Shown here one piece after another: positions 14,438-56,246 of a stretch of 56,246 nucleotides of DNA. Origin of the DNA: a virus (taxonomy: Duplodnaviria; Caudoviricetes). The notes under the pieces were generated by a model. That model was not told the DNA's origin. It worked only from the letters and a program-made list of their open reading frames with translations, and ran no database searches. Within the stretch, counting starts at the first letter, position 1. Every line of letters starts with the position of its first letter. Location: positions 1 to 56,246 of IMG/VR virus record IMGVR_UViG_3300021335_000019. One strand, given 5' to 3'. A program made the position numbers and the translations under genes.

Positions 14438-14575
14438 ATGAATAGACAACAGCAGCTGGCCGCATTGGCCGCGCAGCTACACGAGCTGACCACCGAAGAA
14501 GAGCGGGAGGATTATCCGTTCTTCGATCACCTGCATGATCTGATCTATGACCTCGGGGTGGAGGAAGGCGAATGA
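14438..14575 (+). CDS. Small acidic hypothetical protein (45 aa)
   Basis: Manual translation MNRQQQLAALAAQLHEL...; ATGA overlap with the next gene. Confidence 0.55.
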   Translation: MNRQQQLAALAAQLHELTTEEEREDYPFFDHLHDLIYDLGVEEGE

Positions 14576-15099
14576 CTCTCCCCCGTCTCATCGGGCTTTA
14601 CAGCCCTGCACCGGGCTGCGGTAAGACCACCGCAGCTAATCTCTTCATCGAGCATCAGCGCGTGTCATTTGCAGCGCCGCTTAAGCGTGCTGTGTGGAAC
14701 ATGCTCGACGACCTCGGGCTTCCGGGCTTTCATTACATCTACACAGACAAAGAAGCCATCATCCCCGAGCTTGGCGTATCAGCGCGCCACATGATGCAAA
14801 CGCTCGGCACCGAATGGGGCAGGGCTTGCATCCACCCAGATTTCTGGGTGATGATCGCTCGCGCCGAGGCGCAACGCATCATGGACAATGGCGGATCCGT
14901 CGTGATCGATGATGTGCGGTTTTCGAATGAAGCCGCGATGATTCGCGACCTCGGCGGTGAGCTATGGCGCATCGAACGCCCTGGTGTCACCTACAGCGGA
15001 GACCACAGCAGCGAAGGCGGATTGGAAGACATCATCCCTCATCATGTGATCGTCAACAATGGAACCATTGCACAACTCAAGGAGAAGATTTATGGCTGA
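14572..15099 (+). CDS. Deoxynucleoside monophosphate kinase
   Basis: PGCGKTT P-loop, SFAAPLK, MQTLGTEWGR, IDDVRFSNEA, HSSE. Confidence 0.88.
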   Translation: MTLPRLIGLYSPAPGCGKTTAANLFIEHQRVSFAAPLKRAVWNMLDDLGLPGFHYIYTDKEAIIPELGVSARHMMQTLGTEWGRACIHPDFWVMIARAEAQRIMDNGGSVVIDDVRFSNEAAMIRDLGGELWRIERPGVTYSGDHSSEGGLEDIIPHHVIVNNGTIAQLKEKIYG

Positions 15100-43287: not shown

Positions 43288-44016
43288 ATGAAGTCGATCC
43301 GTCTTCTAGATCTGTTCAAGTATTACAAAAAGCTCGGCCACCAAACGGCTGGCCTGCTTGAACTTGAGCAACAAATTCTGTACTTCTGTCCAGATTGCTT
43401 CGATCGCGATCAAGAGTGGTACAAAACCTGGTCTACCGCCGTTGCCCCTAAAGAGGGTAAGTGGCTCGTCAGCCGCAAACAAGTTGCCGCTGTTTCAGGC
43501 TGGAAACCAAGCCAGTTTGACGACAAGTTCATGAGCGACCTAAACAAGCTCATCTACAGCACTGGAATGACCAGCGTCCAGCAACGCCGCCACTTAATTT
43601 CGCAAACGGCCCACGAAACCGGTCGCTACCGCTGGATGAAGGAGCTAGGCGACGACGATTACTTCACCCGCATGTACGACAACCGCAGCGACTTAGGCAA
43701 CGGCCCGGGTGACGGCAAAATCTTTTTTGGCGGCGGCGCAATCCAACTAACTGGCCGCTACAACTACCAGCGTTTCAGCAACTGGCTGGAACGTAACGGC
43801 ATGACCGACGACAAGGTTATGCAAGAAGGCGCTAACTACGTCGCCGAGCAGTACCCATTCCTCTCAGCAGTCTGCTGGATCGAAGAAAACAACTGGGCAG
43901 CCGTTTGTGAAGGCACTGATGTCTACCAAGTAACCCGAATTCTCAACGGTGGGTACAACGGCATCGAAGACCGCCTAGCACTGTATAAAAAAGCGTGCGA
44001 AGCTATAAAGCAATAG
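43288..44016 (+). CDS. Endolysin, glycoside hydrolase family 19
   Basis: SQTAHETG, LGN...GDG..FFGGGAIQLTGRYNY, ILNGGYNGIEDR. Confidence 0.88.
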   Translation: MKSIRLLDLFKYYKKLGHQTAGLLELEQQILYFCPDCFDRDQEWYKTWSTAVAPKEGKWLVSRKQVAAVSGWKPSQFDDKFMSDLNKLIYSTGMTSVQQRRHLISQTAHETGRYRWMKELGDDDYFTRMYDNRSDLGNGPGDGKIFFGGGAIQLTGRYNYQRFSNWLERNGMTDDKVMQEGANYVAEQYPFLSAVCWIEENNWAAVCEGTDVYQVTRILNGGYNGIEDRLALYKKACEAIKQ

Positions 44017-44020
44017 TTGA

Positions 44021-44266
44021 ACCAGTTACATTCAAAACATCTGGGGCGTTGACCTTGCGGACCTTAAAAGGGCGCATGTTGCCGTCGGTTGGTTGCATCA
44101 TGGCCCCTCTGCCGCACCACGCGGTGGTGACCACTGGACCTGCTGCATTGGCAACTCCGATTCCCTTGGTGTTCACGTTGAATACAGCCGCAAGAACTTG
44201 CCGCGGCGTTGGGAAGTTGACGGTCTGAGCACCGGCTGGGCTATCCTAGTGAAGCCTGAATTTTGA
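44021..44266 (+). pseudogene. Start-less remnant of a C39-like peptidase (lysin) domain
   Basis: Open frame VAVGWLHHGPSAAPRGGDHW...IG...YSRKNLPRRWEVDG..TGW; no N-terminal start codon. Confidence 0.55.
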
Positions 44267-44269
44267 AGC

Positions 44270-44785
44270 GTGATCCTGAGTGATTGGCAGATCCAACACC
44301 ATGCAGAACAAGGCGCGATGGTTGAACCGTTTGACCTTGAACTTGTCAACCCCGCCAGTATTGATGTAAGACTCGGCAATCATTTGATGATCGAAGTTGC
44401 CGATCAACGCGAGCTGGTAGAGGTTGACATCAGCAAACGCACCGCAGAGCATCCGTACTGGTTGCTGCCGAATGAATTTTGTTTAGCTGAAACGCTAGAA
44501 ACATTCAACTTGCCAAGACTTATCGCCGCGCAGTTTGTGTTGAAATCAAGCCGCGCACGCGAAGGGTATGAGCACATGCTTGCGGGATTCTGCGATCCAG
44601 GCTGGCATGGCAGTAAGCTCACGCTTGAACTCAAAAATGCACGCAGATTTCACGACTTGCCGCTATACCCTGGCCTGAAAATTGGCCAGATGGTGTTTCA
44701 CAGAATGTGCGCATCACCACTTCGGGACTACTCTGAGACTGGTAGATACAACGAGGACGTCAAGGTAGCCGCAAGTAAAGGTTAA
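44270..44785 (+). CDS. dcd: dCTP deaminase
   Basis: MILSD, NPASIDVRLG, KSSRAREG, AGFCDPGWHG..LTLEL, GLKIGQMVF. Confidence 0.9.
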   Translation: MILSDWQIQHHAEQGAMVEPFDLELVNPASIDVRLGNHLMIEVADQRELVEVDISKRTAEHPYWLLPNEFCLAETLETFNLPRLIAAQFVLKSSRAREGYEHMLAGFCDPGWHGSKLTLELKNARRFHDLPLYPGLKIGQMVFHRMCASPLRDYSETGRYNEDVKVAASKG

Positions 44786-44931
44786 AACACACGCTTCATG
44801 CGTTCAGAGTAAAGCTGAATTGCTTGCTCGTAAAACACACGAGCCTGCCATTCTTGGCGGTGCTCCTTTATCATGCCAGCATAGGTGACGCGCCACACGT
44901 CATTTACTTTTTCGATTGATGGAGGTTTCAT
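44782..44931 (-). CDS. Small hypothetical protein (49 aa, MKPPSIEKVNDVWRVTYAGMIKEHRQEWQA...)
   Basis: Manual translation. Confidence 0.5.
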   Translation of the reverse strand: MKPPSIEKVNDVWRVTYAGMIKEHRQEWQARVFYEQAIQLYSERMKRVF

Positions 44932-45154
44932 GGGTTGGGCTCAATGGATGATCGTTGAACTCCCGGTTGAGGAGCAACTCACCCTAGAGAAGCAAGCACG
45001 GACGCCATTGCATCAAGGCAGCAGCGATCAAATCCGGCAGTTGTGCTCAAGCCTGATCCGTCAAAATCACCATCAGCAAAAGCTACTGAAGCAAGCCACT
45101 GGCCGGATCATTGAACTTGAAGCAATGGCAGCGTGCCTTGACATTCAAACGTAG
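44930..45154 (+). CDS. Small helical hypothetical protein (MGWAQWMIVELPVEEQL...)
   Basis: Start moved to ATG 44930. Confidence 0.55.
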   Translation: MGWAQWMIVELPVEEQLTLEKQARTPLHQGSSDQIRQLCSSLIRQNHHQQKLLKQATGRIIELEAMAACLDIQT

Positions 45155-46016
45155 CTGTCTTACCTAATGCGCGCCTAATCTTGATAAATGCGCGATCACG
45201 GCGCTGTCTGATGCGTTCGCGCGATACATTATGCTGCTGCGCAATCTTCCTTAATGTCGTCGGTTCATTATCAAACAATCCAAAGTATTTTACGATGATG
45301 TCTCGATCGAAGTCGTCCAGTTGGTCACAGGCAAAATAAAGCCCGGCTTGCCGCTTTTTATCATTGACATCATCGTACAAATCCTCACTATCGGATAACA
45401 TATCAACAAGCGGCGATCCATCTTCTTTGGTAAGTGCATCAAGGCTGGTGTGCATTGTTGAGCGTTCCATGATTAACCGCAGATCACTTGGCTTCATGTC
45501 CATGATCTCGGCTACTTGATCTAGTGTTGGCAGCACACCATGAGCCTGCCTGTATTCGTTTTTGATCTTGAATGCACGGTTAACTTTCTCCAGCGCATTG
45601 GTTGGTATTCTTACAGCACGGTCATACGATTCAATTCCGCGATTCATCGCTTGTCTGATCCACCAATAGGCATAGGTGCTGAACTTATAGCCGCGTGCAC
45701 CATCAAACAGCTCCGCTGCGCGTTGCAATCCGACCGTACCTTCTTGAATCAAATCCATGTGATCCATGGCAGCGCCACGGATTCGTGGTGCAAAAGTACG
45801 GCTTACATGCACCACAAGTCTGAGGTTGCATTTGACCAGCTCCTCACGCGCGCGAAGCCCAGATCTAATCTCACGGCGTTCAGTATTGGTCGGGTTAGGC
45901 TTATCACGCAGATCCTGCCAACGCTTGACGCGCCTGGACAGCTTGATCTCTTGATCCGTGGTCAGCAGTGGATACTTGCCGATCGCATTAAGATAATCGC
46001 GCATTACCTCAGGCAT
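45108..46016 (-). CDS. RNA polymerase sigma70-family (RpoD-like) factor
   Basis: DYLNAIGKYPLLT (1.2), NLRLVV, DLIQEG, GYKFSTYAYWWIRQ (2.3-2.4), VSRERIRQ (4.2). Confidence 0.93.
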   Translation of the reverse strand: MPEVMRDYLNAIGKYPLLTTDQEIKLSRRVKRWQDLRDKPNPTNTERREIRSGLRAREELVKCNLRLVVHVSRTFAPRIRGAAMDHMDLIQEGTVGLQRAAELFDGARGYKFSTYAYWWIRQAMNRGIESYDRAVRIPTNALEKVNRAFKIKNEYRQAHGVLPTLDQVAEIMDMKPSDLRLIMERSTMHTSLDALTKEDGSPLVDMLSDSEDLYDDVNDKKRQAGLYFACDQLDDFDRDIIVKYFGLFDNEPTTLRKIAQQHNVSRERIRQRRDRAFIKIRRALGKTATFECQGTLPLLQVQ

Positions 46017-46045
46017 CAGTGGGTGGTGGGGAAGACCGGCGAATC

Positions 46046-46354
46046 TTAGCACTGATCTTGGTGCAACCACAACCAAATAGTGCCTTCAGCTTCAGCGGTC
46101 CAGAACGGTTGCAGCCGGAACCACGCTACCCAGTCATCAGATCCCTTGCGTGAGTTGCAGTTTGCGCAGCAGCTTATCAAGTTCGCTCGGTCAGTGTGTC
46201 CGCCTTTGCTGCGTGGCCTGACGTGATCCAGCGTTGTCGCTGGATTGCCGCAGTAAGCGCAGCGGTGTTCCCATGCTTCGAGTATCGATTGCCTGAATTG
46301 ACGCTTAGCGTGACGACGTGGCACAAGGTAGCAGCCATCGATGCAGTGATCCAC
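46046..46354 (-). CDS. HNH endonuclease
   Basis: CAYCG...TLDHVRPRSKGG...NLISCCANCNSRKG. Confidence 0.88.
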   Translation of the reverse strand: MDHCIDGCYLVPRRHAKRQFRQSILEAWEHRCAYCGNPATTLDHVRPRSKGGHTDRANLISCCANCNSRKGSDDWVAWFRLQPFWTAEAEGTIWLWLHQDQC

Positions 46355-47506
46355 CTAATCAGTAAGGATGGGCGCTGAAATCGTGAATCCTCGCTCTGAG
46401 TCGATGCAACGGAGCAGCTGCTGCGGACGTTCTGGCGCAAAACCCAATTTCATGCCATACGGCGTAGCGCCGATCAGGGAGCCGTTGACTGACCAGTTCT
46501 GGCCCATCGTCAGCTGATGGAAGTGACCCATAAAGGTATGGTCAGCCTTAATGCCTTGGTCTTGGCGGTAAATCCATTTTTGCAGCGGTATGGTAATGCC
46601 TCCAACACCGCCGCCATACCTGATGGCGTCACCATGGTGGAAGCGGAGGCGGTGATTCATCACGTTGACGTAATGAATGTTGCCGTCACTGATGTCGAAT
46701 GTGATGCGGGGTTCTTTGCGGTAGTGGCGGGCGAGGGATTTGTACATCAGCCACTCGTAACTGGTGGCCGCGGCATTGCCCGCTCGCATCTTGTCGGTGG
46801 TACGGCCATGGTTCCCGAAGGAGCAGGGCACGATGATCTGCTCAAAGTCGCCATGCTCTAGGAGATGATCAAGGCCAGCAACGATGGCGCGCTCACATTC
46901 GATGAGCTGCTGCGTCGGGCTCAAGATTTGCGTCTCAACCTGATCAGGATGCAGCCAGTTGTCGATCAGATCACCACCAAGCCAGATGATGCAACGGCGC
47001 ACCTCGGCTGCGCTGCGCAGCATCCGTACAACCCGCAGTGTGTTGCGGAACAGAGCGCCGGCACGTTCGTGGAAGATGTCTACGTCGTAGCGGTTCAGGC
47101 CGCAGACCGTCGCAGGATCCACCACAGCGCCGCAGTGCCAATCTGAGCACAGCAGCAGCGGCACTGTTTCGCTGCGTTGACCTGTGGTGTCTACAACAAG
47201 CGATGCAGGTTGTTCAATGTCACGGATCTCCAGTGCCGTAGCCAGCTGCTCTTGCAGGCTTTCAACTTTGCTTAGCAGCCTGTCTTGATCACTGATTTGG
47301 CCGCGCACCTGTTCCCGTAATCGACGGTTCTCTATCTGCAGCTGCGTTAGTGCCTCTTGCGTGTCGCCCTTGCCTTTGGGGCAATGCCCAGACTTGCAGT
47401 ACAATTCACCGCTGTTCTCGTCGCGGTAGAGCAGATCAGCAGGCAGCTTCTCACGGCAACGACGCAACCGGCGGCAGGTGAACTTCAGCTGTTCGACTGC
47501 CGCCAT
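46355..47506 (-). CDS. Calcineurin-like metallophosphoesterase with N-terminal Cys-rich and coiled-coil regions
   Basis: SDWH, GGDLID, GNHGR, HHGD, GHFH motifs. Confidence 0.85.
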   Translation of the reverse strand: MAAVEQLKFTCRRLRRCREKLPADLLYRDENSGELYCKSGHCPKGKGDTQEALTQLQIENRRLREQVRGQISDQDRLLSKVESLQEQLATALEIRDIEQPASLVVDTTGQRSETVPLLLCSDWHCGAVVDPATVCGLNRYDVDIFHERAGALFRNTLRVVRMLRSAAEVRRCIIWLGGDLIDNWLHPDQVETQILSPTQQLIECERAIVAGLDHLLEHGDFEQIIVPCSFGNHGRTTDKMRAGNAAATSYEWLMYKSLARHYRKEPRITFDISDGNIHYVNVMNHRLRFHHGDAIRYGGGVGGITIPLQKWIYRQDQGIKADHTFMGHFHQLTMGQNWSVNGSLIGATPYGMKLGFAPERPQQLLRCIDSERGFTISAPILTD

Positions 47507-47639
47507 ACGATGCGGTTCAGTGCCCTCACTATAGAAGAAATGGGGTCAAGGCGTCGCAGCTTGGCTGCTTACTCTTGTTTCGCCAATTCGCCAAGAGTCA
47601 AAATCGGCGGCAATGGCACTGCTTGAGCTTATGCACTGG

Positions 47640-47828
47640 CTATACCGAGTTTTGTGCATTTAGGAAACGAGCGAATGCACCAGGGCGTGGTTTGAAGCTG
47701 CGACGGTAGGTTTTGTTGGTGTTTGAGATGTAGAGTTTGCGGCCATTATCGGTGATGATGTATTTAGCACCGCGGGGGCTGATGTGTACTTCGCGGTTGC
47801 CGATATACTTTTCAGAGATGGTTGCCAT
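47640..47828 (-). CDS. Cassette-array mini-gene (MATISEKYIG...)
   Basis: Start moved to ATG 47828 after GGAGAACAACTG. Confidence 0.65.
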   Translation of the reverse strand: MATISEKYIGNREVHISPRGAKYIITDNGRKLYISNTNKTYRRSFKPRPGAFARFLNAQNSV

Positions 47829-47884
47829 CAGTTGTTCTCCGGTGTGGTGGTGGTGGGGCGCATTGCTTTTTTGAGTCAGTTGCA

Positions 47885-48154
47885 CTAAGTGAGCCGGCCA
47901 TACGGCTTGTCATCGCTAAGGTCGTCGGCATCTACGGTTTCGATGTCCTTCCATTCGCCGCCGGATTTGAATCCCTGACTCCATGTGAAATAGCCCTGGA
48001 GCTTCAGATGGACTTGACCTTCGTCGGTTCGGAAGCGCACCAGGCGGTAAATGTCAGGAATGTTTTTTTCAATCCTGGCTGCATCGATGTGCACTGGTCC
48101 AGACGGAATGAATATCTCATCTGTGCTCCAGCTGATGGGGCGTTGGTCAGTCAT
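47885..48154 (-). CDS. Cassette-array mini-gene (MTDQRP...)
   Basis: Shared N-terminal motif. Confidence 0.7.
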   Translation of the reverse strand: MTDQRPISWSTDEIFIPSGPVHIDAARIEKNIPDIYRLVRFRTDEGQVHLKLQGYFTWSQGFKSGGEWKDIETVDADDLSDDKPYGRLT

Positions 48155-48416
48155 TGTGCTTAATCAGAGGTTGATAGGTCATCTCAAAGATGTCAGGCTT
48201 GCAAGGATAGAACTCACCCTTCACGCCTTTGATAATCCAGTCGCCAATCCGGGCTTGATGGTCACCTTCAAGGGTTTGGATTACCAGTGGTGGGATACAC
48301 CTCGTTCGATAGCAATACTTGCCATTGGATTTAATCCAAGCGATGATCTCGTCAAGATTGTCCTTGGTCAGTTGCCGCGCCTCAATGACGACTGGCTTTT
48401 TCTGGAAAAATGGCAT
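48147..48416 (-). CDS. Cassette-array mini-gene of a widespread phage family (KKPVVIEA...TLEG...GDWIIKGVKGEFYPCKPDIF)
   Basis: Recognisable motif; flanked by junction repeats. Confidence 0.8.
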   Translation of the reverse strand: MPFFQKKPVVIEARQLTKDNLDEIIAWIKSNGKYCYRTRCIPPLVIQTLEGDHQARIGDWIIKGVKGEFYPCKPDIFEMTYQPLIKHND

Positions 48417-48670
48417 CAGTTGTTCTCCGGTGTGGTGGTGGTGGGGCGCATAGCTTCTCGAAGGTTTCCAACAACGTAATCAACGCCCCGTTGTTCCAGG
48501 TCCAAGTTGTGGCGCAACCACTCAATCACCTGCTCCAACTGCCAATCAGCAGCGGCACGCATGATTCGTCGAGTAGATGGACAGGGTTCTTGCCACTTGA
48601 GCCAGTTGTCTTTGTTGTCTTGCCAGATTTGGCAGCAAAGGTCGACAGTCAGTGGGTGTTGTTCAGTCAT
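48416..48670 (-). CDS. Constant/variable family mini-gene, copy A
   Basis: MTEQHPLT...MRAAADWQLEQVIEWL...AMRPTTTTPENN. Confidence 0.75.
   Translation of the reverse strand: MTEQHPLTVDLCCQIWQDNKDNWLKWQEPCPSTRRIMRAAADWQLEQVIEWLRHNLDLEQRGVDYVVGNLREAMRPTTTTPENN
48518..48563. repeat. 46-bp core repeat, identical at 50389-50434 and 50990-51035; partial copy at 49060-49089
   Basis: CCACTCAATCACCTGCTCCAACTGCCAATCAGCAGCGGCACGCATG. Confidence 0.9.
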
Positions 48671-48924
48671 CAGTCGTCCTCCAGTTGATGGACTGCTTCG
48701 AGTAGTTGCCACTTGAGGGCACCTTCTTTGATCAAGCGCTCAAGTTTCTCCCTGGGGGTTTCAGCAAATTGCCATTCGCGTCCGTTGATGGTGCCAAAGA
48801 CATCCCACCTGACATCGCCCCAGACATTGCATTTGACGTGCTTAACACGCCATGCTCCCTCGATAAACTCAAAATCAACAAGTTTGAGGGCTTCTTCGAG
48901 TGGGATTTGGTTTTGTTCAGTCAT
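48670..48924 (-). CDS. Cassette-array mini-gene (EEALKLV...ETPREKL family), copy 1
   Basis: Paralogue of 50096-50284. Confidence 0.75.
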   Translation of the reverse strand: MTEQNQIPLEEALKLVDFEFIEGAWRVKHVKCNVWGDVRWDVFGTINGREWQFAETPREKLERLIKEGALKWQLLEAVHQLEDD

Positions 48925-49298
48925 CAGTTGTCCTCCTGTTGTTGTGGGCGTAGTTCTTGCATAACTTCTTTGAAAAAGTCTTCACATGCGTCTGCCCCGG
49001 CGACGTATCCCTGTATACGCCACTCGTTGAGCTTCAGCTCTACCTTTCTCATTACTTCTTCCAACTGCCAGTCAGCAGCGGCACGCATGTCTTGTCTAAA
49101 GATTGAAATGGGATAGTCGTAGCAGAGGCTGTCTTCATAGAGATCAGAGATCTCTTCGATGGCCTCATCAGTCAGTGGGTGTTGGTTGGTCATTGGGGTT
49201 CTCCTCATGTAGTTGGCGTAATGTCTCATCATGCTGTTGGCGTAAAGCTCTTGGTGGAATTCGCAGAGTTTGTCAGTCAGTGGGTGTTGGTTAGTCAT
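48924..49298 (-). CDS. Constant/variable family mini-gene, copy B (duplicated N-terminal motif)
   Basis: MTNQHPLTD occurs twice; MRAAADWQLE core. Confidence 0.7.
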   Translation of the reverse strand: MTNQHPLTDKLCEFHQELYANSMMRHYANYMRRTPMTNQHPLTDEAIEEISDLYEDSLCYDYPISIFRQDMRAAADWQLEEVMRKVELKLNEWRIQGYVAGADACEDFFKEVMQELRPQQQEDN

Positions 49299-49528
49299 CA
49301 GTTGTCCTCCTGTGTGGTGGTTTTGTAAAGAATAGGGGCATAACTGTTGTCAACAGGTTTAGTGGTCAGATGAGTACCTCCGCAATGAGGACATCGATAA
49401 ACTGAATAATTTTTGCCATGCTTTTTAGCGAACTTGTCTGCCGATTGCTTGTAAGTCTTGTTGCCAAGGTTTGCTTTGCCTTGGCACCCACGCTCAAAAG
49501 ATGGTTGTCGGTCAGTGTCAGTGGTCAT
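49298..49528 (-). CDS. Cassette-array mini-gene with zinc-finger motif
   Basis: C...YRCPHCGGTHLT; ends TTTQEDN. Confidence 0.7.
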   Translation of the reverse strand: MTTDTDRQPSFERGCQGKANLGNKTYKQSADKFAKKHGKNYSVYRCPHCGGTHLTTKPVDNSYAPILYKTTTQEDN

Positions 49529-50037
49529 GGTGTCTCCTGTGTGGTGGGCTCCGGTATCGGTAGGGCGTAGTGGGGGAGCACATGGGTCCAGCAAACCCAA
49601 GCCTCTGGACGGTCGAATGACCAGAAGGGATCTGTATCGTCCGCGTCAAAGCACCAACACCAACCATTGTTGTCACACCACCCCTCACGCTCCCAGGGCC
49701 TCTCGCTTACCGGGATTGGCTGGACAGCAGGGCGGCCCCAGCGGGCGCGATCAGCGGCAATGACAGCGCGGGCGAAAGACAGCACGTCGTCTCTCATGTT
49801 TGCGCCTGCCTGTAACGGATAAATCACGCCCCCGTCGCACATGGTGTAGGAAACTTGATGCTCTTGAGACAGGTCAAGAATCTCCTCATCCGTGAGTTCC
49901 TCCGGCTCGGGCTGGGAGAGGTAGGCGTAAGCTTCGTCAATTAGTGCCGACTGATTGGGGACGTTGTACTGGCAGTGCAAGAGATCCAGCTTCTCAGCCA
50001 GCCGCTGGATCAGGTTGCGTGGGTGTTGGTCAGTCAT
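49525..50037 (-). CDS. Cassette-array gene (MTDQHP...PIPVSER...THVLPHYALP)
   Basis: Shared N- and C-terminal motifs. Confidence 0.7.
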   Translation of the reverse strand: MTDQHPRNLIQRLAEKLDLLHCQYNVPNQSALIDEAYAYLSQPEPEELTDEEILDLSQEHQVSYTMCDGGVIYPLQAGANMRDDVLSFARAVIAADRARWGRPAVQPIPVSERPWEREGWCDNNGWCWCFDADDTDPFWSFDRPEAWVCWTHVLPHYALPIPEPTTQETP

Positions 50038-50063
50038 CTAAATGTTGAACGAAGTGTACATTG

Positions 50064-50089
50064 AAGAAGAAAGCCGCTGGTAAGCGGCT
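50064..50089 (-). terminator. Putative terminator inside the array
   Basis: Minus strand AGCCGCT-TACC-AGCGGCT-TTCTTCTT. Confidence 0.5.
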
Positions 50090-50095
50090 AGGTCT

Positions 50096-50284
50096 TCAGT
50101 TGTCCTCCAGTTGATTCAATGCTTCGAGTAGTTGTGACTTGTGGGCACCTTCTTCAATTAGGCGCTTGAGTTTCTCCCTGGGGGTTTCAACGTACTGGTA
50201 TCTACAACCGTTGATTGTCCCATAAACATGCCCTTCAACAAGTTTCAGAGCCTCTTCAAATGTGATTCGGTTTTGGTCAGTCAT
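50096..50284 (-). CDS. Cassette-array mini-gene (EEALKLV...ETPREKL family), copy 2
   Basis: Paralogue of 48670-48924 with a shorter middle. Confidence 0.75.
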   Translation of the reverse strand: MTDQNRITFEEALKLVEGHVYGTINGCRYQYVETPREKLKRLIEEGAHKSQLLEALNQLEDN

Positions 50285-50517
50285 TTGTTGTTCTCCTGTG
50301 TGGTGGTGGGGCGCATTGCTTTTTCAAGTTCTTCGGGGATGTTTACCGCTTCTAAGCTGCTGCCACGCTCGAAGATTGTTTCGTTAAGCCACTCAATCAC
50401 CTGCTCCAACTGCCAATCAGCAGCGGCACGCATGCAGTCATAAGCGGCAGGATGTCGCACAGGCCAAGGAGCAATCTCTTCGCAGATCTTGCTAGTAAGT
50501 GGGTGTTGTTTACTCAT
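50281..50517 (-). CDS. Constant/variable family mini-gene, copy C
   Basis: MSKQHPLT...MRAAADWQLEQVIEWL...KAMRPTTTQENNK. Confidence 0.75.
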   Translation of the reverse strand: MSKQHPLTSKICEEIAPWPVRHPAAYDCMRAAADWQLEQVIEWLNETIFERGSSLEAVNIPEELEKAMRPTTTQENNK

Positions 50518-50852
50518 CAGTTGTTCTCCTGTTGATGTTGTTGTGTTTGAAGTAGCATCGTGCGGAACTGATTTTCCATAACCTCCCTTTCCATAACCTC
50601 CCTTTGCACAACGTCCAAGAGCTGCTTATCTGTCAAGCAGTGAAACTCTGCCGAGTACCTAATCATATCAGTCTCCATATCTTCGGTTTCTGTAATCTCT
50701 ACCTGCTTAAGGATTTGTGTGGCGATATCGTGCGCTAGTTCTGACTTGATTTGCTGGGTAAAAAATTCAGGACAGAGTGCGTTCATTATTTTTTTGCGTG
50801 AGACTAGAGTAGACGCACTGATCAAGGTTTTGTCAGTTCGCAGGCGTATCAT
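50517..50852 (-). CDS. Cassette-array gene, unrelated body ending QQENN
   Basis: Junction repeats on both sides. Confidence 0.7.
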   Translation of the reverse strand: MIRLRTDKTLISASTLVSRKKIMNALCPEFFTQQIKSELAHDIATQILKQVEITETEDMETDMIRYSAEFHCLTDKQLLDVVQREVMEREVMENQFRTMLLQTQQHQQENN

Positions 50853-51127
50853 TGGTTGTTCTCCTGTGTGGTGGTGGGGCGCATTGCTTTTTTGAGGTCG
50901 TCAATAAACGCTTCCGTGAGAAAATAAGTGATGTAATAATCTTCCATTACGTAATCTTCCATTAAGTAATCTTCAGTATTAGTTTTTAACCACTCAATCA
51001 CCTGCTCCAACTGCCAATCAGCAGCGGCACGCATGTCTTCTTCGTCGTACCAACGACTTGTGTACTCTCCAGAGAAATTGAACGTTTTGCCAATTACTTC
51101 GTCAGTCAGTGGGTGTTGGTCAGTCAT
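50849..51127 (-). CDS. Constant/variable family mini-gene, copy D
   Basis: Start moved to ATG 51127: MTDQHPLT...MRAAADWQLEQVIEWL...KAMRPTTTQENNQ. Confidence 0.75.
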   Translation of the reverse strand: MTDQHPLTDEVIGKTFNFSGEYTSRWYDEEDMRAAADWQLEQVIEWLKTNTEDYLMEDYVMEDYYITYFLTEAFIDDLKKAMRPTTTQENNQ

Positions 51128-51513
51128 TAGGAAGTGCCTCCAGTGCGCGGCGGATGGCAGAAGCGGTAAGTATTGAACCGTTAGCTCCGTGCAGCTCATT
51201 CAGGATTGTCTCCAGTTCCGACAGCGCCAGGTCTTTTCAAGCTCGGCGGCTTGGGTCGGCGGGCGGCGCGGAGTGCATTGATGTAGTCGGTCGGCGTCTC
51301 GTCCGCCATCCACTCACAACACGCCTCCAGCTCTTCATCACGGGCCTGCTGCAGCTCGGCCTCATTGACCTCGCCGCGCTGCTCGTAGCCCCATTGGGCA
51401 GCGTGATAGGCAACTTGTTCGGTAATGCTGCAGTAATCTTGAGACCGTGCTTCAGTCATCCATTTAGCTATCAGCTCAGGCGGTGGGGTGATGGGGTGCT
51501 GTTGTTCAGTCAT
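51120..51513 (-). pseudogene. Cassette-array gene (MTEQQHPITPPPEL...) with an apparent one-base frameshift at 51234-51237
   Basis: Zero frame stops at 51196; skipping one A gives PSLK-DLALSEL...IRRALEALPND*, overlapping the next ATG like other cassettes. Confidence 0.6.
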
Positions 51514-51641
51514 TGGTTGTTCTCCTGTGATTCGAGTTTCCGCAGCTCAGCGCGGATGTTTGCAGCCATGAACTTGTTGCCATGGCGTTCTGCGATCTCA
51601 AGCGCCTTCAGGTAGCGCTCGCGGCGGGAGGGTTCAGTCAT
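51510..51641 (-). CDS. First cassette-array mini-gene (43 aa, MTEPSRRERY...SQENNQ)
   Basis: Manual translation; ATGA overlaps at both ends. Confidence 0.65.
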   Translation of the reverse strand: MTEPSRRERYLKALEIAERHGNKFMAANIRAELRKLESQENNQ

Positions 51642-52270
51642 GCCCATGCGGCCTCCGCAATGACGGGAAACTGCGCCGTAAAGATTTCACGGCACTGCTC
51701 AGCCAGTCGGCGATGCTCCAGCTGCGTCTCCTCACTGGCACGAATCTGAATGTAATGAATCCAACTACGCAACGTACCAGTCATATACATCGAAGTCGGC
51801 GTACACATCGGCAGGATGCGCCTGGCCGTTTCTTTGGCCACACCCCTCTCAAGCATCTGATCATAAAGAAAGAAGCTGTCGGCAATCAACCGCCCAGCTT
51901 TCTTTTGCAACTCATCCTGGTGCGTGGGGTGAATGTCATTGATGCTGTTCTGCCGGTTATCAAGGTCTTGCCGCCTAAACCATGGAATCTCAGCAGGCTT
52001 GGTCTTGGCGTAACGAGTCGAAAACTCCTGAAAGCTAAACGAACGATGCCGCAAGATCTGAGCGGCGATGTCGCGTTCGGTTTCGATCAGGACGCACAAC
52101 GACGCCATCTCGAACGGCGACCAGTGCTTGTGCTTAATCAGGTAACGCAGCAACCGAGGACCGGTTTTCCAGTTCTCGTCATTGCTGGGATTGCTGACGC
52201 GAGCCATCTTGACGATGAGTCGCTCAGCATCAGGCGTGCAATGCACGAAGCGGACATGTTTAGTCATCAC
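51638..52270 (-). CDS. thyX: Flavin-dependent thymidylate synthase
   Basis: HWSPFE, QILRHRSFSFQEFSTRY signature, ETARRILP. Confidence 0.95.
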   Translation of the reverse strand: MMTKHVRFVHCTPDAERLIVKMARVSNPSNDENWKTGPRLLRYLIKHKHWSPFEMASLCVLIETERDIAAQILRHRSFSFQEFSTRYAKTKPAEIPWFRRQDLDNRQNSINDIHPTHQDELQKKAGRLIADSFFLYDQMLERGVAKETARRILPMCTPTSMYMTGTLRSWIHYIQIRASEETQLEHRRLAEQCREIFTAQFPVIAEAAWA

Positions 52271-52457
52271 GAGTTGCCTCCCAGTTGATTACGTCTTCCA
52301 GTCGATACTGCACACGCGGCTGTCGTGGGCTGCGGCCAGCACGTGCAAGTTCATGCCAGTGCGGCCCGATGCCGCGATACCGCCAGCCCTTAATGGTGGC
52401 AGGCTTCAACCCAAGCCTTGCGGCGAGTTGTTCGGTGGTCAAGAAGTCAGTCTCCAT
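52260..52457 (-). CDS. Excisionase/AlpA-like HTH DNA-binding protein
   Basis: FLTTEQLAARLGLKPATIKGWRYRGIGP...VQYRLEDV. Confidence 0.8.
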   Translation of the reverse strand: METDFLTTEQLAARLGLKPATIKGWRYRGIGPHWHELARAGRSPRQPRVQYRLEDVINWEATRDD

Positions 52458-52524
52458 GGTTGTCGTTAAAGTGTGAACGGGATAGCGCCGCAATCCTGTG
52501 GGTGGTGTGCGGCGCAAGTCCCTC

Positions 52525-52719
52525 TCAACGCGGATCGATCGGGTTGGCCGATAGCTCTAACTTGCTGATTTGCAGCTGGCTGCCGTCTTCCTTTTGGCAG
52601 ATGTAATGCGGGAATGGTGTCATCACATCTGCGCGTTCAACGATTGCAACCCATCGGCGGCGGTTGCCGTGGATGTAAACGATGTCGCCGGGCTCGAAGT
52701 CTGCGGATGGTCTAGCCAT
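52525..52719 (-). CDS. Small SH3-like hypothetical protein (MARPSADFEPGDIVYI...)
   Basis: ORF track; start uncertain. Confidence 0.5.
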   Translation of the reverse strand: MARPSADFEPGDIVYIHGNRRRWVAIVERADVMTPFPHYICQKEDGSQLQISKLELSANPIDPR

Positions 52720-52844
52720 TGGATTTTGCTCCAGTAGGGCAGCCATTCCTTAGCGACTAGCTGCTTTGCTTCGGTGAAGGATGCAGCACGCACCACTTCA
52801 AATACATTTGCTTCAGGGATCTCAAAGTAGTATTTGTTGGTCAT
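52623..52844 (-). CDS. Hypothetical protein
   Basis: ATGA overlap with the upstream gene. Confidence 0.5.
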   Translation of the reverse strand: MTNKYYFEIPEANVFEVVRAASFTEAKQLVAKEWLPYWSKIQWLDHPQTSSPATSFTSTATAADGLQSLNAQM

Positions 52845-53119
52845 GTGGCAAATCCTCTAGCGCGGGCTCGATGTGGGCTTGCAGGATCGCTGCGATTGTT
52901 ACCGTCGGCAGTAATAACAACAGGACGCGGGTGAGAACGTTCATCCGCTGGTTTCAGTAGATAGGTGTGCAGTTGCGTGAGATTGGCTGATAACCAATGG
53001 ATCATTTGCCCGCAAGTGAACCCCGCGGCATACACAAAAGCAACAGCGACAGCGATGATGCGGACGATGGATTCAATCTGACTTCCTAGTTGCTGGCTTG
53101 ATGGGATGGTGAGTTTCAT
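52841..53119 (-). CDS. Putative single-pass membrane protein
   Basis: IIAVAVAFVYAAGF hydrophobic stretch. Confidence 0.55.
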   Translation of the reverse strand: MKLTIPSSQQLGSQIESIVRIIAVAVAFVYAAGFTCGQMIHWLSANLTQLHTYLLKPADERSHPRPVVITADGNNRSDPASPHRARARGFAT

Positions 53120-53311
53120 TTGATTAGCGGGAGTTGTGGTGCTGGCTTGTTGTACTTGCGTGGTGGTGGTGGGAGCAATTCGCCCGGTAGTACCGGGCGT
53201 TGCTTGCGGATGATGGTGATCATGTGGGTGGTGTGAATGCTTTGACGAGGTAGTGGGATGATGTCCTCGTGCCCCATTATTGCCGTGCTGCGCCGTGTTG
53301 CAACGTGCGCT

Positions 53312-53333
53312 GTGCCGGTTTGCTGACCGGCTC
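53312..53333 (-). promoter_or_regulatory. Pseudo-palindrome promoter element (copy 8)
   Basis: GAGCC-GGTCAGCAAACC-GGCAC, 30 nt (containing TTGCAA), AATAAT. Confidence 0.6.
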
Positions 53334-53652
53334 AGGCGAGCACAGCCATGGCGTTGGCGTTGAGCCAGCTGGCGACCTCAGAGATCAAGGTCAATCCGTC
53401 CTTGTGCATGGCGGCGATCAGTTGCGCTGCCTGCCATGCCGTAGCGCGACGCAGCGCCATTGAAATGGTGCCGGTGATGCGACCAGTGGCATCGGCATAC
53501 AGCACGCCATAAGCGAGTTGCTTAGCGGTAAAGCAGCTGGACTGCTGCTCAAGATTCCGCAGCTGCTGCTCAGCGCCACCAGCAGCACGACGCTTGCCGC
53601 GGAAGGAAGCGGGAACAGTGGCCAGAACCGCAGTGGCGGTGGTCATGATCAT
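53332..53652 (-). CDS. Hypothetical protein
   Basis: ORF between two repeated promoters; start uncertain. Confidence 0.6.
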   Translation of the reverse strand: MIMTTATAVLATVPASFRGKRRAAGGAEQQLRNLEQQSSCFTAKQLAYGVLYADATGRITGTISMALRRATAWQAAQLIAAMHKDGLTLISEVASWLNANAMAVLA

Positions 53653-53738
53653 CGCAGCCTCTGGGCTGCCGTGTGGAGGGCCGATTGCCTCCGGTGAGAT
53701 CACTATCGGCCCTATTCAGCTCCGCTTAGCTGTGCGCT

Positions 53739-53760
53739 GTGCCGGTTTTCAGAACGGAAT
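53739..53760 (-). promoter_or_regulatory. Pseudo-palindrome promoter element (copy 9)
   Basis: ATTCC-GTTCTGAAAACC-GGCAC, 31 nt, GATAGT. Confidence 0.55.
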
Positions 53761-54093
53761 GTCTTCGTTGCTCGGTGCTGCTGCTGCTGGCTGAGCAGAT
53801 ACGCGTGGCGGCAGCGTGAATTGATCAACGCTCAACTCAAGACTCTGGCCTTGGCTGCCGTCTTTCTTCTCATAAGTGCGCACCTTACCGCGACCTGCGA
53901 CGGTGATCGCAGATCCTTTCCGCAGGTACTGCATTGCCGTATCAGCGCGTTTGCCCCACACCTGGCAGTTGATCCATGTGGTTTCGTCTTTGCCGGTTTT
54001 GGCAGCAAGTGAGAAGTTTGCAACCTGCGATTGGCCGACATCCTTGAGCTCAGGATCCTGGCCAAGGTTGCCGTGTGCGGTGATGTTCAGCAT
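53749..54093 (-). CDS. ssb: Single-stranded DNA-binding protein
   Basis: GNLGQDPEL, TTWINCQVWGKRA, C-terminal EDIPF. Confidence 0.92.
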   Translation of the reverse strand: MLNITAHGNLGQDPELKDVGQSQVANFSLAAKTGKDETTWINCQVWGKRADTAMQYLRKGSAITVAGRGKVRTYEKKDGSQGQSLELSVDQFTLPPRVSAQPAAAAPSNEDIPF

Positions 54094-54098
54094 GGTGT

Positions 54099-54308
54099 TC
54101 AGTTCAGTGGTGTGATGCCATTGGCTTCCTCAAAAGCCAAGACGTGGGCAAGTGGATAACGAACCCGTGGCGTGCCAGCTGGTGTGCCAAAGCGCGGCAA
54201 GGTGAAGTATTGCGGACCAACGCCGCGTGTGCGTTGGTTTTTGATGGCGCTGGGTTTCAGGCCCCAGCGCTCAGCGAGTTGTTCAGTGGTCAGGTACGGT
54301 TCAGTCAT
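54099..54308 (-). CDS. Excisionase/AlpA-like HTH DNA-binding protein (paralogue of 52260-52457)
   Basis: [28 protein letters not shown]...VRYPLAHV. Confidence 0.8.
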
Positions 54309-55065
54309 CAGCAAACGGATCCTCTTCAACCTCGGTCAGTTCCTTCTCCTTGGCCATGAGCAACTCCAACAGTTGCGTCATCTGCTCATCGCTGAGATCT
54401 CCCGATCGAGCTTCCATGCGTTCCTGCAGCGCCTTGAGTCCATCGATGCTGGTAACTTTGGCGATGGCGGCTTTGCCGGCATTGAAAACCTTCTCGTCGC
54501 CTGCCGGTGCAGCCGGTGCTGGTTCAGCGGTAACGGTGACAGCTTGAACCTCCTCGACCTGATCCATCTCCTCAGAGCCGTAAACACCAGACAGATCAGC
54601 CGGGAATGCTTTACGCAATGCGAGGGCTTCGCTGCATTTGGCGATCATCGCAGCGCCCATCTTGCTCCACAAGCCTTGGCCAGCGTTGTAGTCCGCATAA
54701 CGCGCCACGCCTACGAATGGATGCTGGCTGCCCTTGCGGTGGATGATGGTCTTGGCCGCGGCGGGTGGTTTGCTGCCAAGCCAGACATCTTTCCATTCGC
54801 CATCTTCGCCGCACCAAAACGTCTCGGAACCATCAAGCTGGCCGGTGCGTTCAGCGATCGAGCGCAAGCCATCGATGCCGGCTTGGATGGTCATCTTGCC
54901 GCCACGCTTGATGGCGTAGATCTGTTTGCTAAACGGGTCGAGCCCAGTGCGTTGGCACGCATAGGCAAACATCCGCAGCTCATCAGCGCTGCAGCCTGGC
55001 GCGATCGTCGAGGCGATCAGCTGCTTTTGCTCTGGGGACCAGAGCGCAAGGGAACTAGAAGTCAT
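54301..55065 (-). CDS. bet: RecT/Bet-like single-strand annealing recombinase
   Basis: [38 protein letters not shown]. Confidence 0.9.
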
Positions 55066-55849
55066 CTGAAGTCAGTGTGTCGTGGGTGGTGGTGAATGCC
55101 CATTTGGGCAGGCTCAGTGGCTCGATGGTGTTGCTGTAACCAGGCCATTCGTTAATGGCGCGGCAATCAGCAATCATCCGCATGTTCTGCTTACGCAGCT
55201 CATTGCCGTGTTGCATGGCATCAGCATCGAGCTGATACACGCCAACGGCATACGGATAGGTCTTCTCTACTGCGATGAAGATGAACCGCTCAGCCGGTAG
55301 ACCAGCTAGGTAGTGACTGGCCTGAACATGGTAGCGGAAGGTGGCGCAGGATTTGGCGAAGCCGGCAGGTGATGCGTCGGTGGTGGTTTTGAGGTCAATC
55401 ACCGTGGCGCCATTGAGCCAATCCGGGCGGCACTTGCACCGCATTCCGGTGTCGGCATCATCCCACCAGAAGCTCTGCTCTGCCTGACCATCACGCAGCA
55501 GCTCAGCAGCGGCTTGGTGACTGCGGACAGCACCAGCCATCGCCAATGCTGCATCCATGTCAGCAGCGCTAACAGGCGTGATGCCTTTGGATTCCATCTC
55601 AGCAGCCAGTTCCTTACCGGCTTTGGTGCGGCGATCCGGCGCTAGGTCATAGCGATTGCGCAGCTCATCTGGTTCCAGCACAGCGGTGTGGACCAACGTG
55701 CCAAACAGCATTGCAGCGGTGGGTTTTACCGGCTGACGATCGGGATTCAGGTAGCGCGACCAGTAGTGATACGGCGACTTTGCCACCATGTGCAGATGGC
55801 TGGCACTGACAGCAGGGTCAGCGTGATACTCCTCATTGGTGATAATCAT
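55055..55849 (-). CDS. RecE/exonuclease VIII-like PD-(D/E)xK exonuclease
   Basis: [41 protein letters not shown]; adjacent to the recombinase. Confidence 0.88.
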
Positions 55850-56013
55850 CGCTCAACCCACTCCCCGCACCAGTCATCGTCAGCAACACCTGGCCACCAT
55901 GCGTTGCGACCCTCTTCATAGCTTGGTCGCGGTGCATGGCGATGGCATCTGCACGCCTGGGGGTGCCAGTATCGGCAGTTTTCGCAACACTGCTCTTCGA
56001 GTGGTGTGTTCAT
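55846..56013 (-). CDS. Cys-rich mini-protein (55 aa) with HiPIP-like cysteine spacing
   Basis: CENCRYW...CHRHAP...WPGV..DDWCGEW; ATGA overlap with the exonuclease. Confidence 0.6.
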   Translation of the reverse strand: MNTPLEEQCCENCRYWHPQACRCHRHAPRPSYEEGRNAWWPGVADDDWCGEWVER

Positions 56014-56120
56014 TGGCGTAGTCGTGGGTGGTGGCCGGGATTGGTGACGGCTCCCGGTGGGCCGTGTGGGTGGTCAGACCTCGGCGACCCTTGGGATCGA
56101 GTTGGCGACCGAGGCGCCGA

Positions 56121-56246
56121 TAGAGCCGGCCCAATACTCGTAGAAACTGGGCTTCTCTGCCAGGGCCTCCAGGGCGGCGGCCTCCGTTCTGAATTTGCCT
56201 GGGAGAACGTACTGGCCGCTGGCCAGTACCCAGGAGCGGCGGATTT
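56121..56246. repeat. Terminal direct repeat, right copy
   Basis: Identical to 9-134. Confidence 0.9.

Follow-up and report, generated by a model that had tools for sequence, protein, structure and literature searches.

Variable halves of a small acidic phage protein are probably exchanged by recombination at conserved coding blocks

The window analyzed here is the entire IMG/VR virus record IMGVR_UViG_3300021335_000019, 56,246 bp of DNA rated 100% complete. Between positions 48416 and 51127 its minus strand carries four paralogous genes of a family of small acidic proteins, which are the subject of this report. Each gene comprises five segments in the order N-block, V1, core, V2 and C-block; the three blocks are constant and the two V segments are variable. 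The four genes, each an open reading frame (ORF), and their cores, located by repeat search, pattern search and alignment, are as follows.

48416..48670, minus strand: family copy A, ORF of 84 residues
48924..49193, minus strand: family copy B, ORF of 89 residues, the diverged copy
50281..50517, minus strand: family copy C, ORF of 78 residues
50849..51127, minus strand: family copy D, ORF of 92 residues
48518..48563, minus strand: 46-bp core of copy A
49044..49089, minus strand: core of copy B, diverged in its 3' part
50389..50434, minus strand: 46-bp core of copy C
50990..51035, minus strand: 46-bp core of copy D

A sequence-only reading of this DNA had described four paralogues with constant blocks and a 46-bp core identical in three of them, and the repeat search, the pattern search and the alignment all confirmed this. 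The repeat search of the window placed the core family at 48513-48563, 49039-49089, 50384-50434 and 50985-51035. A 29-nt core pattern matched exactly at 48534-48562, 50405-50433 and 51006-51034, with one mismatch at 49060-49088 in copy B, which had rightly been singled out as more diverged. The pattern occurs nowhere else in the window and had no match in 100 of 100 shuffles. The diverged blocks of copy B read MRAAADWQLEEVMRKV and ELRPQQQEDN. In the DNA alignment of the four genes, copies A, C and D share an uninterrupted identical core run, and the flanks differ in length and cannot be aligned, as had been claimed for V1 and V2.

The possibility that the identical copies arose by assembly collapse, raised in the same reading, is unlikely. 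In the sequencing run that best covers the window (X1), each unique segment is represented by Logan contigs at a depth of 12-17.8 that break only at repeated blocks; the copies are therefore not a collapsed assembly. Run X1 is perhaps the source sample of the window itself and is then not independent support. Between 48000 and 51600, the depth of its contigs of unique segments is either 12-12.7 or 17-17.8, and a second strain in the sample may share some of the cassettes and not others. Two 15-nt tandem duplications are also present, one at 50937-50966 within V2 of copy D, where it yields MEDY-type repeats, and one at 50573-50602 within a neighbouring 111-residue gene; one contig of run X5 is without the 15 nt at 50573. 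There are hints that slippage adds to the length variation of the V regions.

V1 and V2 reassort, and no linkage between them is detectable. IMG/VR, scanned with a degenerate pattern, yielded 53 loci (L numbers below), which together with the isolate S-SKS1 and the window provide 74 family ORFs. These collapse to 55 unique genes, and the removal of two without recognisable end blocks leaves 53 distinct genes, of which 52 come from assembled metagenomes, the exception being that of S-SKS1. Segments were classed as the same at an identity of at least 60% and as different below 35%, intermediates being excluded. Among the resulting gene pairs, 27 share only V1, 40 share only V2, 1077 share neither, and a single pair shares both, where ~1.0 is expected under independence. 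The mutual information between V1 and V2 types is 2.475 at a threshold of 0.6, indistinguishable from that of shuffled labels (2.442 ± 0.031); the same holds at 0.7, and at 0.5 the value is marginally higher, being reached by 11 of 2000 shuffles. Every multi-member V1 type (28 of 28 at the 0.5 threshold) pairs with at least two V2 types among 146 distinct V1/V2 pairs, which were taken from proteins as well as loci; the protein set is biased, its matches having been ranked by how closely they resemble copy C. Of 150 cluster representatives, 100 were usable; they contain ~79 V1 and ~78 V2 types that exhibit no association. However, clustering at 50% identity removes linked pairs and this set therefore informs on diversity, not on linkage. 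Identical V1-V2 combinations recur in different metagenomes (for example L009/L010, L021/L022, L028/L029, L038/L041, L050/L051 and L052/L053). Isolate S-SKS1 carries one combination, whose halves are found with other partners in L015 and L023. Thus, V1 and V2 are not co-inherited, in agreement with the sequence-only reading.

The switch from one partner to another takes place inside the core. In pairs that share only V1, the per-codon nucleotide difference is low through core codon +6 and rises thereafter; in pairs that share only V2 it is high through codon -4 and low from codon -3 on. The two pair classes are alike only over M-R-A-A-A-D-W-Q-L-E, which places the switch zone at codons -3 to +6 of the core, ~30 nt coding MRAAADWQLE. 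Blastn of this region of the window against the loci returned matches that cover half-genes only and have one end in the core. For copy C, the N half matches L019 (50532-50398, 91%) and the core with V2 matches L013, L017 and L057 (50449/50433/50432 to ~50280, 86-87.5%). The V1 half of copy A is closest to L006, L004 and L005 (L006 match 48687-48524, 85%) and its V2 half is closest to L009 and L010 (48563-48411, 79%). The core with V2 of copy D is 80-83% identical to L021, L022 and L011, which have other V1 types (L021 and L022 matches 51037-50858, 83%). Both the similarity switch and the half-gene matches ending in the core bear out the earlier proposal of exchange at the constant blocks.

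The blocks are conserved at the nucleotide level beyond the protein sequence that they encode. In the cores of the 55 unique genes, Ala is GCT in 51 of 53 instances (background 0.31), Gln is CAG in 52 of 54 (0.47), Leu is TTG in 45 of 55 (0.17) and Ile is ATT in 28 of 28 (0.43). The N-block prefers CCA for Pro (51 of 52) and ACT for Thr (50 of 52), and the C-block GCA for Ala (45 of 47) and CGC for Arg (40 of 47). The V regions of the same genes exhibit ordinary codon use (TTG 0.14, GCT 0.32, CAG 0.41), which rules out gene-level codon bias as the cause of the codon choice in the blocks; the synonymous sites of the core do not vary freely. At identical residues, codons differ at frequencies of 0.22-0.29 in the blocks of genes with unrelated V regions, 0.51-0.53 in alignments of non-homologous V regions and 0.18-0.19 in shared V types. 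Cores identical over 46 nt occur in only 0.18% of between-contig pairs, and the three identical cores of the window are unusual in this respect.

The N- and C-blocks recur in all family copies, as had been described, but they are not specific to the family and belong to a junction cassette that is found at unrelated early genes as well. N-block DNA has eight occurrences in the window at up to three mismatches (0 expected), three of them at genes outside the family. C-block/Shine-Dalgarno DNA has five, one of which is an untranslated relic. Occurrences outside the four genes, and a second relic adjoining copy B, are listed here.

48136..48154, minus strand: N-block-like start of an unrelated 89-residue gene (47885-48154), by N-block match; a C-block relic follows the gene
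50019..50037, minus strand: exact N-block at the start of an unrelated 170-residue gene (49525-50037), by N-block match
50266..50284, minus strand: N-block-like start of a second small family (50096-50284), by N-block match
47828..47881, minus strand: orphan C-block relic, untranslated, reading N*LKKAMRPTTTTPENN*, by repeat and C-block match
49194..49298, minus strand: in-frame relic upstream of copy B, a second N-block plus 27 codons of another V1, by ORF

A table of 17 minus-strand gene starts reveals one recurring junction. Its upstream part consists of the last codons ...T-T-Q-E-N-N, which carry AGGAG, with a stop that overlaps or abuts the ATG; its downstream part reads M-T-D/E-Q-H/N-P. 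This repeat is present at 8-10 gene starts in the window, and all N-block and C-block matches lie on the gene strand. Over all loci, 54 ORFs start with an N-block (up to three mismatches), 29 with the core motif and 25 without. Judged by eye, about half of the 25 are degenerate or deleted family members and the others are unrelated proteins, two of which belong to isolate S-H1, which has no family member. Gene order around the junction also varies, in that L019 has a 76-residue gene directly upstream of the gene with the V1 of copy C, unlike the window.

The relic at 47828-47881 sits just behind the stop of the unrelated gene with the N-block-like start and now provides the Shine-Dalgarno region for gene 47640-47828. 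Copy B can also be read as a 124-residue protein from 49298, by way of the upstream in-frame fusion (N-block match 49280-49298), and duplicated N-blocks like those of copy B are found in proteins P0123 and P0171. L039 and L049 encode a chimera in which a core and V2 of the main family follow the N-terminal part of a second-family protein. To judge from their sequences, the two relics and this chimera appear to be recombination scars.

The second small family is represented in the window by two paralogues of 84 and 62 residues (48670-48924 and 50096-50284, minus strand), which immediately follow copies B and C. They start with MT-E/D-Q-N and end with QLED-D/N, have 141 nt at 79% in common and differ by an internal segment. 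A 105-residue gene at 51196-51513 (minus strand, phrog_32006) starts with an N-block variant, MTEQQHPITPPPE; its relatives with the same start occur twice in isolate S-H1 (L003) and also in L008. In P0137, a protein from a metagenome, a family member is fused by read-through to this gene.

The AlphaFold2 model of copy C, computed from a 108-row alignment, has a pLDDT of 82.3 and a pTM of 0.63. It predicts helices at residues 9-15, 23-51 and 60-67 and a disordered tail, consistent with the helical scaffold that had been proposed. In the model, helix 1 ends within V1, which also includes the loop that follows; the long helix is made up of the core in its first half and of V2 in its remainder, and V2 continues through the second loop into the beginning of helix 3. 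The homodimer model scores an ipSAE of 0.55 versus 0.02 for the best control, with a partner pLDDT of 68; among proteins of solved structure, 20 of 30 pairs of one chain and 1 of 23 single chains reach this mark. The three runs have at least 90% of their contacts in common. Residues 27-47 lie at the centre of the interface, the closest contacts are between same-numbered core residues (28, 29, 32, 33, 36 and 40), and Trp35 contacts residues 7, 11 and 15 of the partner. The proteins may thus dimerise, with the core helix as the predicted interface and the N-block packed on the core.

The family is uniformly acidic, with a median isoelectric point (pI) of 4.37, a median net charge of -10 and 95% of 209 members below pI 5. 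A Foldseek search of the PDB with the model returned no match at E≤0.001 (E 6-9, probability at most 0.18), and a search of BFVD returned only the S-SKS1 member. In the VIA fold search, ~40 of 50 listed rows are histone-fold chains with Z scores of 3.8-6.0, below the trust level for helical proteins. The succession of a short, a long and a short helix in the family model recalls the histone fold, a resemblance that may reflect a common helical arrangement only. The 28-28, 32-32, 36-36 and 40-40 contacts of the modeled family dimer point to parallel helices, in contrast to the antiparallel handshake of histones, and the proteins are strongly acidic. The predicted geometry and the charge speak against a histone-like role.

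The family is essentially phage-restricted, large and unannotated. Pfam-A, PHROGs v4, NCBIfam 20 and PADLOC 2 contain nothing that matches any of the four copies over cut-off or at E≤1e-3, and the best E value in a PDB profile search is 0.54. In the ESM Atlas the 30 nearest clusters are all unnamed and viral, and the nearest named ones score 0.77-0.80, the chance level. A word-indexed protein search identified 271 proteins at E≤1e-3 among 347 candidates, and an exhaustive profile search identified 524 clusters of 50% identity at E≤1e-3, 308 of them at E≤1e-10. Cellular genomes, one for each of 185,579 species, gave 71 pattern matches and one confirmed locus, which is located on a phage-like 44.6-kb contig of a metagenome-assembled genome and has a neighbouring ORF in common with viral locus L017. 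Of 50,697 phage records, only S-SKS1 carries the family. By their completeness ratings, many of the carrier contigs are minor parts of far larger genomes, and the family therefore spans ~55-kb phages and large phages like S-SKS1. A literature search, with supplements outside its scope, returned no papers for the peptide motifs AADWQLE and AMRPTT and only unrelated ones for QHPLT, and no description of the family was found in the topical literature on related phages.

Shorter and longer forms of the protein also occur. L028, L029, L038 and L041 encode mini-members of 56-63 residues in which N-block, V1 and M-R-A are joined directly to the last helix and the C-block. With A-D-W-Q-L-E and most of V2 missing, they look like an internal deletion form. 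P0192 and P0204 are family members that run on into pentapeptide-repeat-like sequence, probably by read-through of the neighbouring gene.

The explanation that we consider probable is that this family of ~80-residue acidic helical proteins, encoded in the early/replication region of marine Synechococcus-type siphoviruses, exchanges its V1 and V2 cassettes independently, by recombination at the conserved blocks. V1 and V2 would be discrete cassettes of many types that pass between paralogues and between co-infecting relatives. The exchange would be homology-dependent, by crossover, gene conversion or copy-choice at short nucleotide-conserved blocks. The ~30 nt coding MRAAADWQLE, part of the 46 bp identical in three window copies, would be the internal crossover zone. 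The outer blocks would form part of the wider junction cassette of last codons with AGGAG, overlapping stop and ATG, and the first 6-8 codons. As this cassette is common to unrelated early genes, whole gene bodies would be replaceable too. The constant blocks would provide the protein scaffold and the V segments would cover helix ends and loops, forming variable surfaces that may bind variable host or rival targets. Conceivably, the proteins are decoys or inhibitors of such targets, a role that would fit their acidity, small size, early-region position and combinatorial variation.

The genome of the window offers a candidate catalyst. By PHROG and Pfam matches, its plus strand encodes terminase, portal, major head, tape-measure, tail-fibre and endolysin genes, and the minus strand at both ends is a replication/early block with helicases, a methyltransferase, a sigma factor, an Mre11-like exonuclease, ThyX, a helix-turn-helix protein and the following three recombination genes, which are transcribed in the same direction as the family array and lie 3-5 kb upstream of it.

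54301..55065, minus strand: RecT-family single-strand annealing protein (PF03837, 109 bits, cut-off 24; phrog_2780)
55055..55849, minus strand: PD-(D/E)XK exonuclease, exonuclease VIII-like (phrog_412; PF12684/PF12705)
53749..54093, minus strand: single-strand DNA-binding protein (PHROG and Pfam matches)

RecT is a candidate for catalyzing the exchange in the window genome only. The partial relatives of this genome, ~80% identical by blastn, are the marine Synechococcus siphoviruses KBS-S-2A, S-CBS1 and S-H1; since these relatives infect marine Synechococcus, we infer the same host.

Several results weigh against exchange at the blocks. None of 24 other family-bearing phage records, most of them fragments and one 100% complete, has a RecT, ERF or AAA_24 match over cut-off, and therefore the link to RecT is not general. 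By the Nei-Gojobori method, the pooled proportion of synonymous differences (pS) of the core is 0.41 (dS ~0.59), above the dS of shared V types (0.40 for V1 and 0.31 for V2); the blocks are therefore at roughly half saturation and not frozen. The synonymous conservation is partial, and homogenisation by exchange is indistinguishable from selection on the DNA. Within shared types dN/dS is 0.17 for V1 and 0.40 for V2, indicating purifying rather than diversifying selection within a V type. The 16 within-contig paralogue pairs found elsewhere have a mean of 10.9 core differences versus 9.9 between contigs (permutation p 0.42). The suggestion that the core is homogenised among paralogues fits the three identical cores of the window but does not extend to these pairs. 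General concerted evolution of paralogues is ruled out, as the 16 pairs exhibit no excess within-contig likeness. Finally, the case for reassortment draws almost entirely on assembled metagenomes.

It is quite possible, if somewhat short of probable, that the blocks are conserved for function only, as scaffold, dimer interface or translation initiation signal, and that recombination is incidental and the DNA identity unselected. The core is the predicted dimer interface and is contacted by the N-block in the model. The C-block places AGGAG 6-8 nt before the next ATG, the junction is common to unrelated genes, and the N- and C-blocks are less paired than the whole mRNA (unpaired 0.56 and 0.54 versus 0.47). 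The paralogues of one contig elsewhere, as noted, are not homogenised. However, function alone leaves unexplained why one synonymous codon is used in 82-100% of genes as against 14-50% in the V regions of the same genes, and translation initiation cannot account for the codon choice of the internal core. This bias, which goes beyond codon usage, could instead reflect a function of the core DNA or RNA itself, as a regulatory RNA, a protein-binding site or the target of a nuclease or recombinase; moreover, the core is more paired than the mRNA average (0.34 unpaired versus 0.47). We nonetheless regard such a function as distinctly unlikely. The core has no consistent pairing with the N- or C-block in the 53 genes, and RNA structure linking the blocks was rejected at mean pair probabilities of 0.06 (core-N), 0.05 (core-C) and 0.05 (N-C). 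There is no Rfam match at E≤1 in 44000-56246; a promoter and terminator scan (sigma-70 consensus only) found nothing at cores or junctions except a terminator-like site at 50072-50089, and the core pattern, as stated above, is absent from the rest of the window.

That assemblers joined different phages at shared blocks of 30-46 nt, creating the reassortment, is highly improbable, even though metagenome assemblies supply every gene but that of S-SKS1 and Logan contigs (k=31) do break at the blocks. Because they break at repeats, the Logan contigs bear on neither the presence nor the absence of chimeric V1/V2 molecules; joints and small shares in runs X2, X3 and X5 were excluded from the evidence. 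The final k-mers and the reads of usual assemblies are longer than the blocks. At least seven combinations are identical in two different metagenomes, recombinant clusters are found on several contigs each (6 for P0005, 8 for P0011, 16 for P0039 and 17 for P0090), and the isolate S-SKS1 shares each half with different partners. The likelihood that the V regions stem from targeted hypermutation, by a diversity-generating retroelement (DGR) or similar, or from fast point-mutation divergence without exchange, is close to nil. A six-frame search of the whole record for reverse transcriptase (PF00078, RVT_1) was negative, and the window has no template/variable repeat pair, the constant blocks being its sole repeats and the V regions being unequal in length and unalignable; this refutes a retroelement, and the earlier statement that the system is not a DGR stands. 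Pure divergence is refuted by the recurrence of V1 with different V2 and vice versa, at ~80-91% DNA identity in one half only.

Exchange at the blocks, which we favor over these alternatives, leaves a further question of whether it has been selected as such. In that case the family would be a retroelement-free diversity generator, in which selection maintains the nucleotide identity of the three blocks as linkers sized for annealing over short homology, phage populations keep producing new V1 × V2 combinations, and these, carried by acidic dimers, act as decoys or inhibitors against variable targets of host defence or takeover. All paralogues would have one dimer interface, and co-expressed copies could therefore heterodimerise. 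We hold this extension to be speculative and rather doubtful.

The process is of a known kind, mosaicism via conserved linkers; new is that it operates within a very small gene whose family is itself new, large and limited to phages. Opa and pilE/pilS of Neisseria likewise consist of a framework and two hypervariable segments that are reassorted, with partial copies as donors; these are bacterial surface antigens that vary within one cell line under immune pressure. By analogy, the phage family resembles them in that two variable segments reassort independently within a conserved framework, whereas its proteins are small, cytoplasmic-looking and early and their exchange is observed across the phage population. 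In the C-terminal displacement of rhs and other polymorphic toxin genes, a conserved coding motif borders the variable tip and serves for recombination, and orphan fragments adjoin the gene. A conserved coding motif at the border of a variable module and orphan fragments beside the gene may be the window's counterparts. The toxins, however, are very large proteins that vary at a single tip and are accompanied by an immunity gene, and the curated family searches suggest no toxin or immunity partner in the window.

Among phage elements, the PeSLs of T4-type phages are described as intergenic promoter-plus-terminator units between small non-essential genes of unknown function, recombination between which shuffles modules among related phages (Arbiol et al. 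2010, PMC2839356). The junction cassette works in a similar way but is not one of them. Both systems have short conserved DNA repeats that flank small genes and alter gene content by recombination. PeSLs, however, are intergenic and move whole genes, whereas the repeats of the window are coding (last and first codons plus Shine-Dalgarno), have no sigma-70-like promoter at their junctions and are supplemented by an in-gene repeat that lets half-genes exchange. The start-associated sequences of Cluster K mycobacteriophages share a 13-bp consensus, GGGATAGGAGCCC, for which a role in translation is proposed and none in recombination (Pope et al. 2011, PMC3203893). As described there, they too precede the start codon of numerous unrelated non-structural genes, all oriented alike, with a conserved motif that contains AGGAG. 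The motif is 3-7 bp before the ATG in that account, whereas in the window the AGGAG core ends 8-9 nt before it; the 13-bp consensus differs, and the window cassette reaches 6-8 codons into the downstream gene and ~5 into the upstream one. The junction is an analogue of these sequences and not a member. Efficient recombination between diverged sequences is reported for Red-type systems (Martinsohn et al. 2008, PMC2327257). With its RecT, PD-(D/E)XK exonuclease, single-strand DNA-binding protein and blocks of 30-54 nt of near-identity, the window resembles Red/RecT mosaicism, unlike the 24 other family-bearing records, which gave no RecT, ERF or AAA_24 match over cut-off.

Phage mosaicism is usually told gene by gene, whereas here, over dozens of viral contigs, an 80-residue protein has two halves that are apparently in linkage equilibrium, and the crossover zone can be located to ~30 nt with biased synonymous sites. 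The family offers a small, tractable natural system for asking whether short linkers are kept for exchange or are merely tolerant of it, and S-SKS1 on Synechococcus WH7803 is a cultured pair that carries a member and makes the question testable at the bench. Combinatorial variation is the pattern expected of proteins that engage variable host or rival targets, and hundreds of unannotated phage-only clusters are flagged here in abundant marine cyanophages.

Two minor features of the record complete the description. Its nucleotide-metabolism set comprises a dCTP deaminase, a dNMP kinase, an 89-residue protein related to MazG-like pyrophosphohydrolases and ThyX (44270-44785, 14572-15099, 48147-48416 and 51638-52270). 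The terminator-like hairpin at 50072-50089 (minus strand) is the sole one on the gene strand in 47000-53500; the array has a single real intergenic gap, between 50096 and 50037, and the hairpin lies there.

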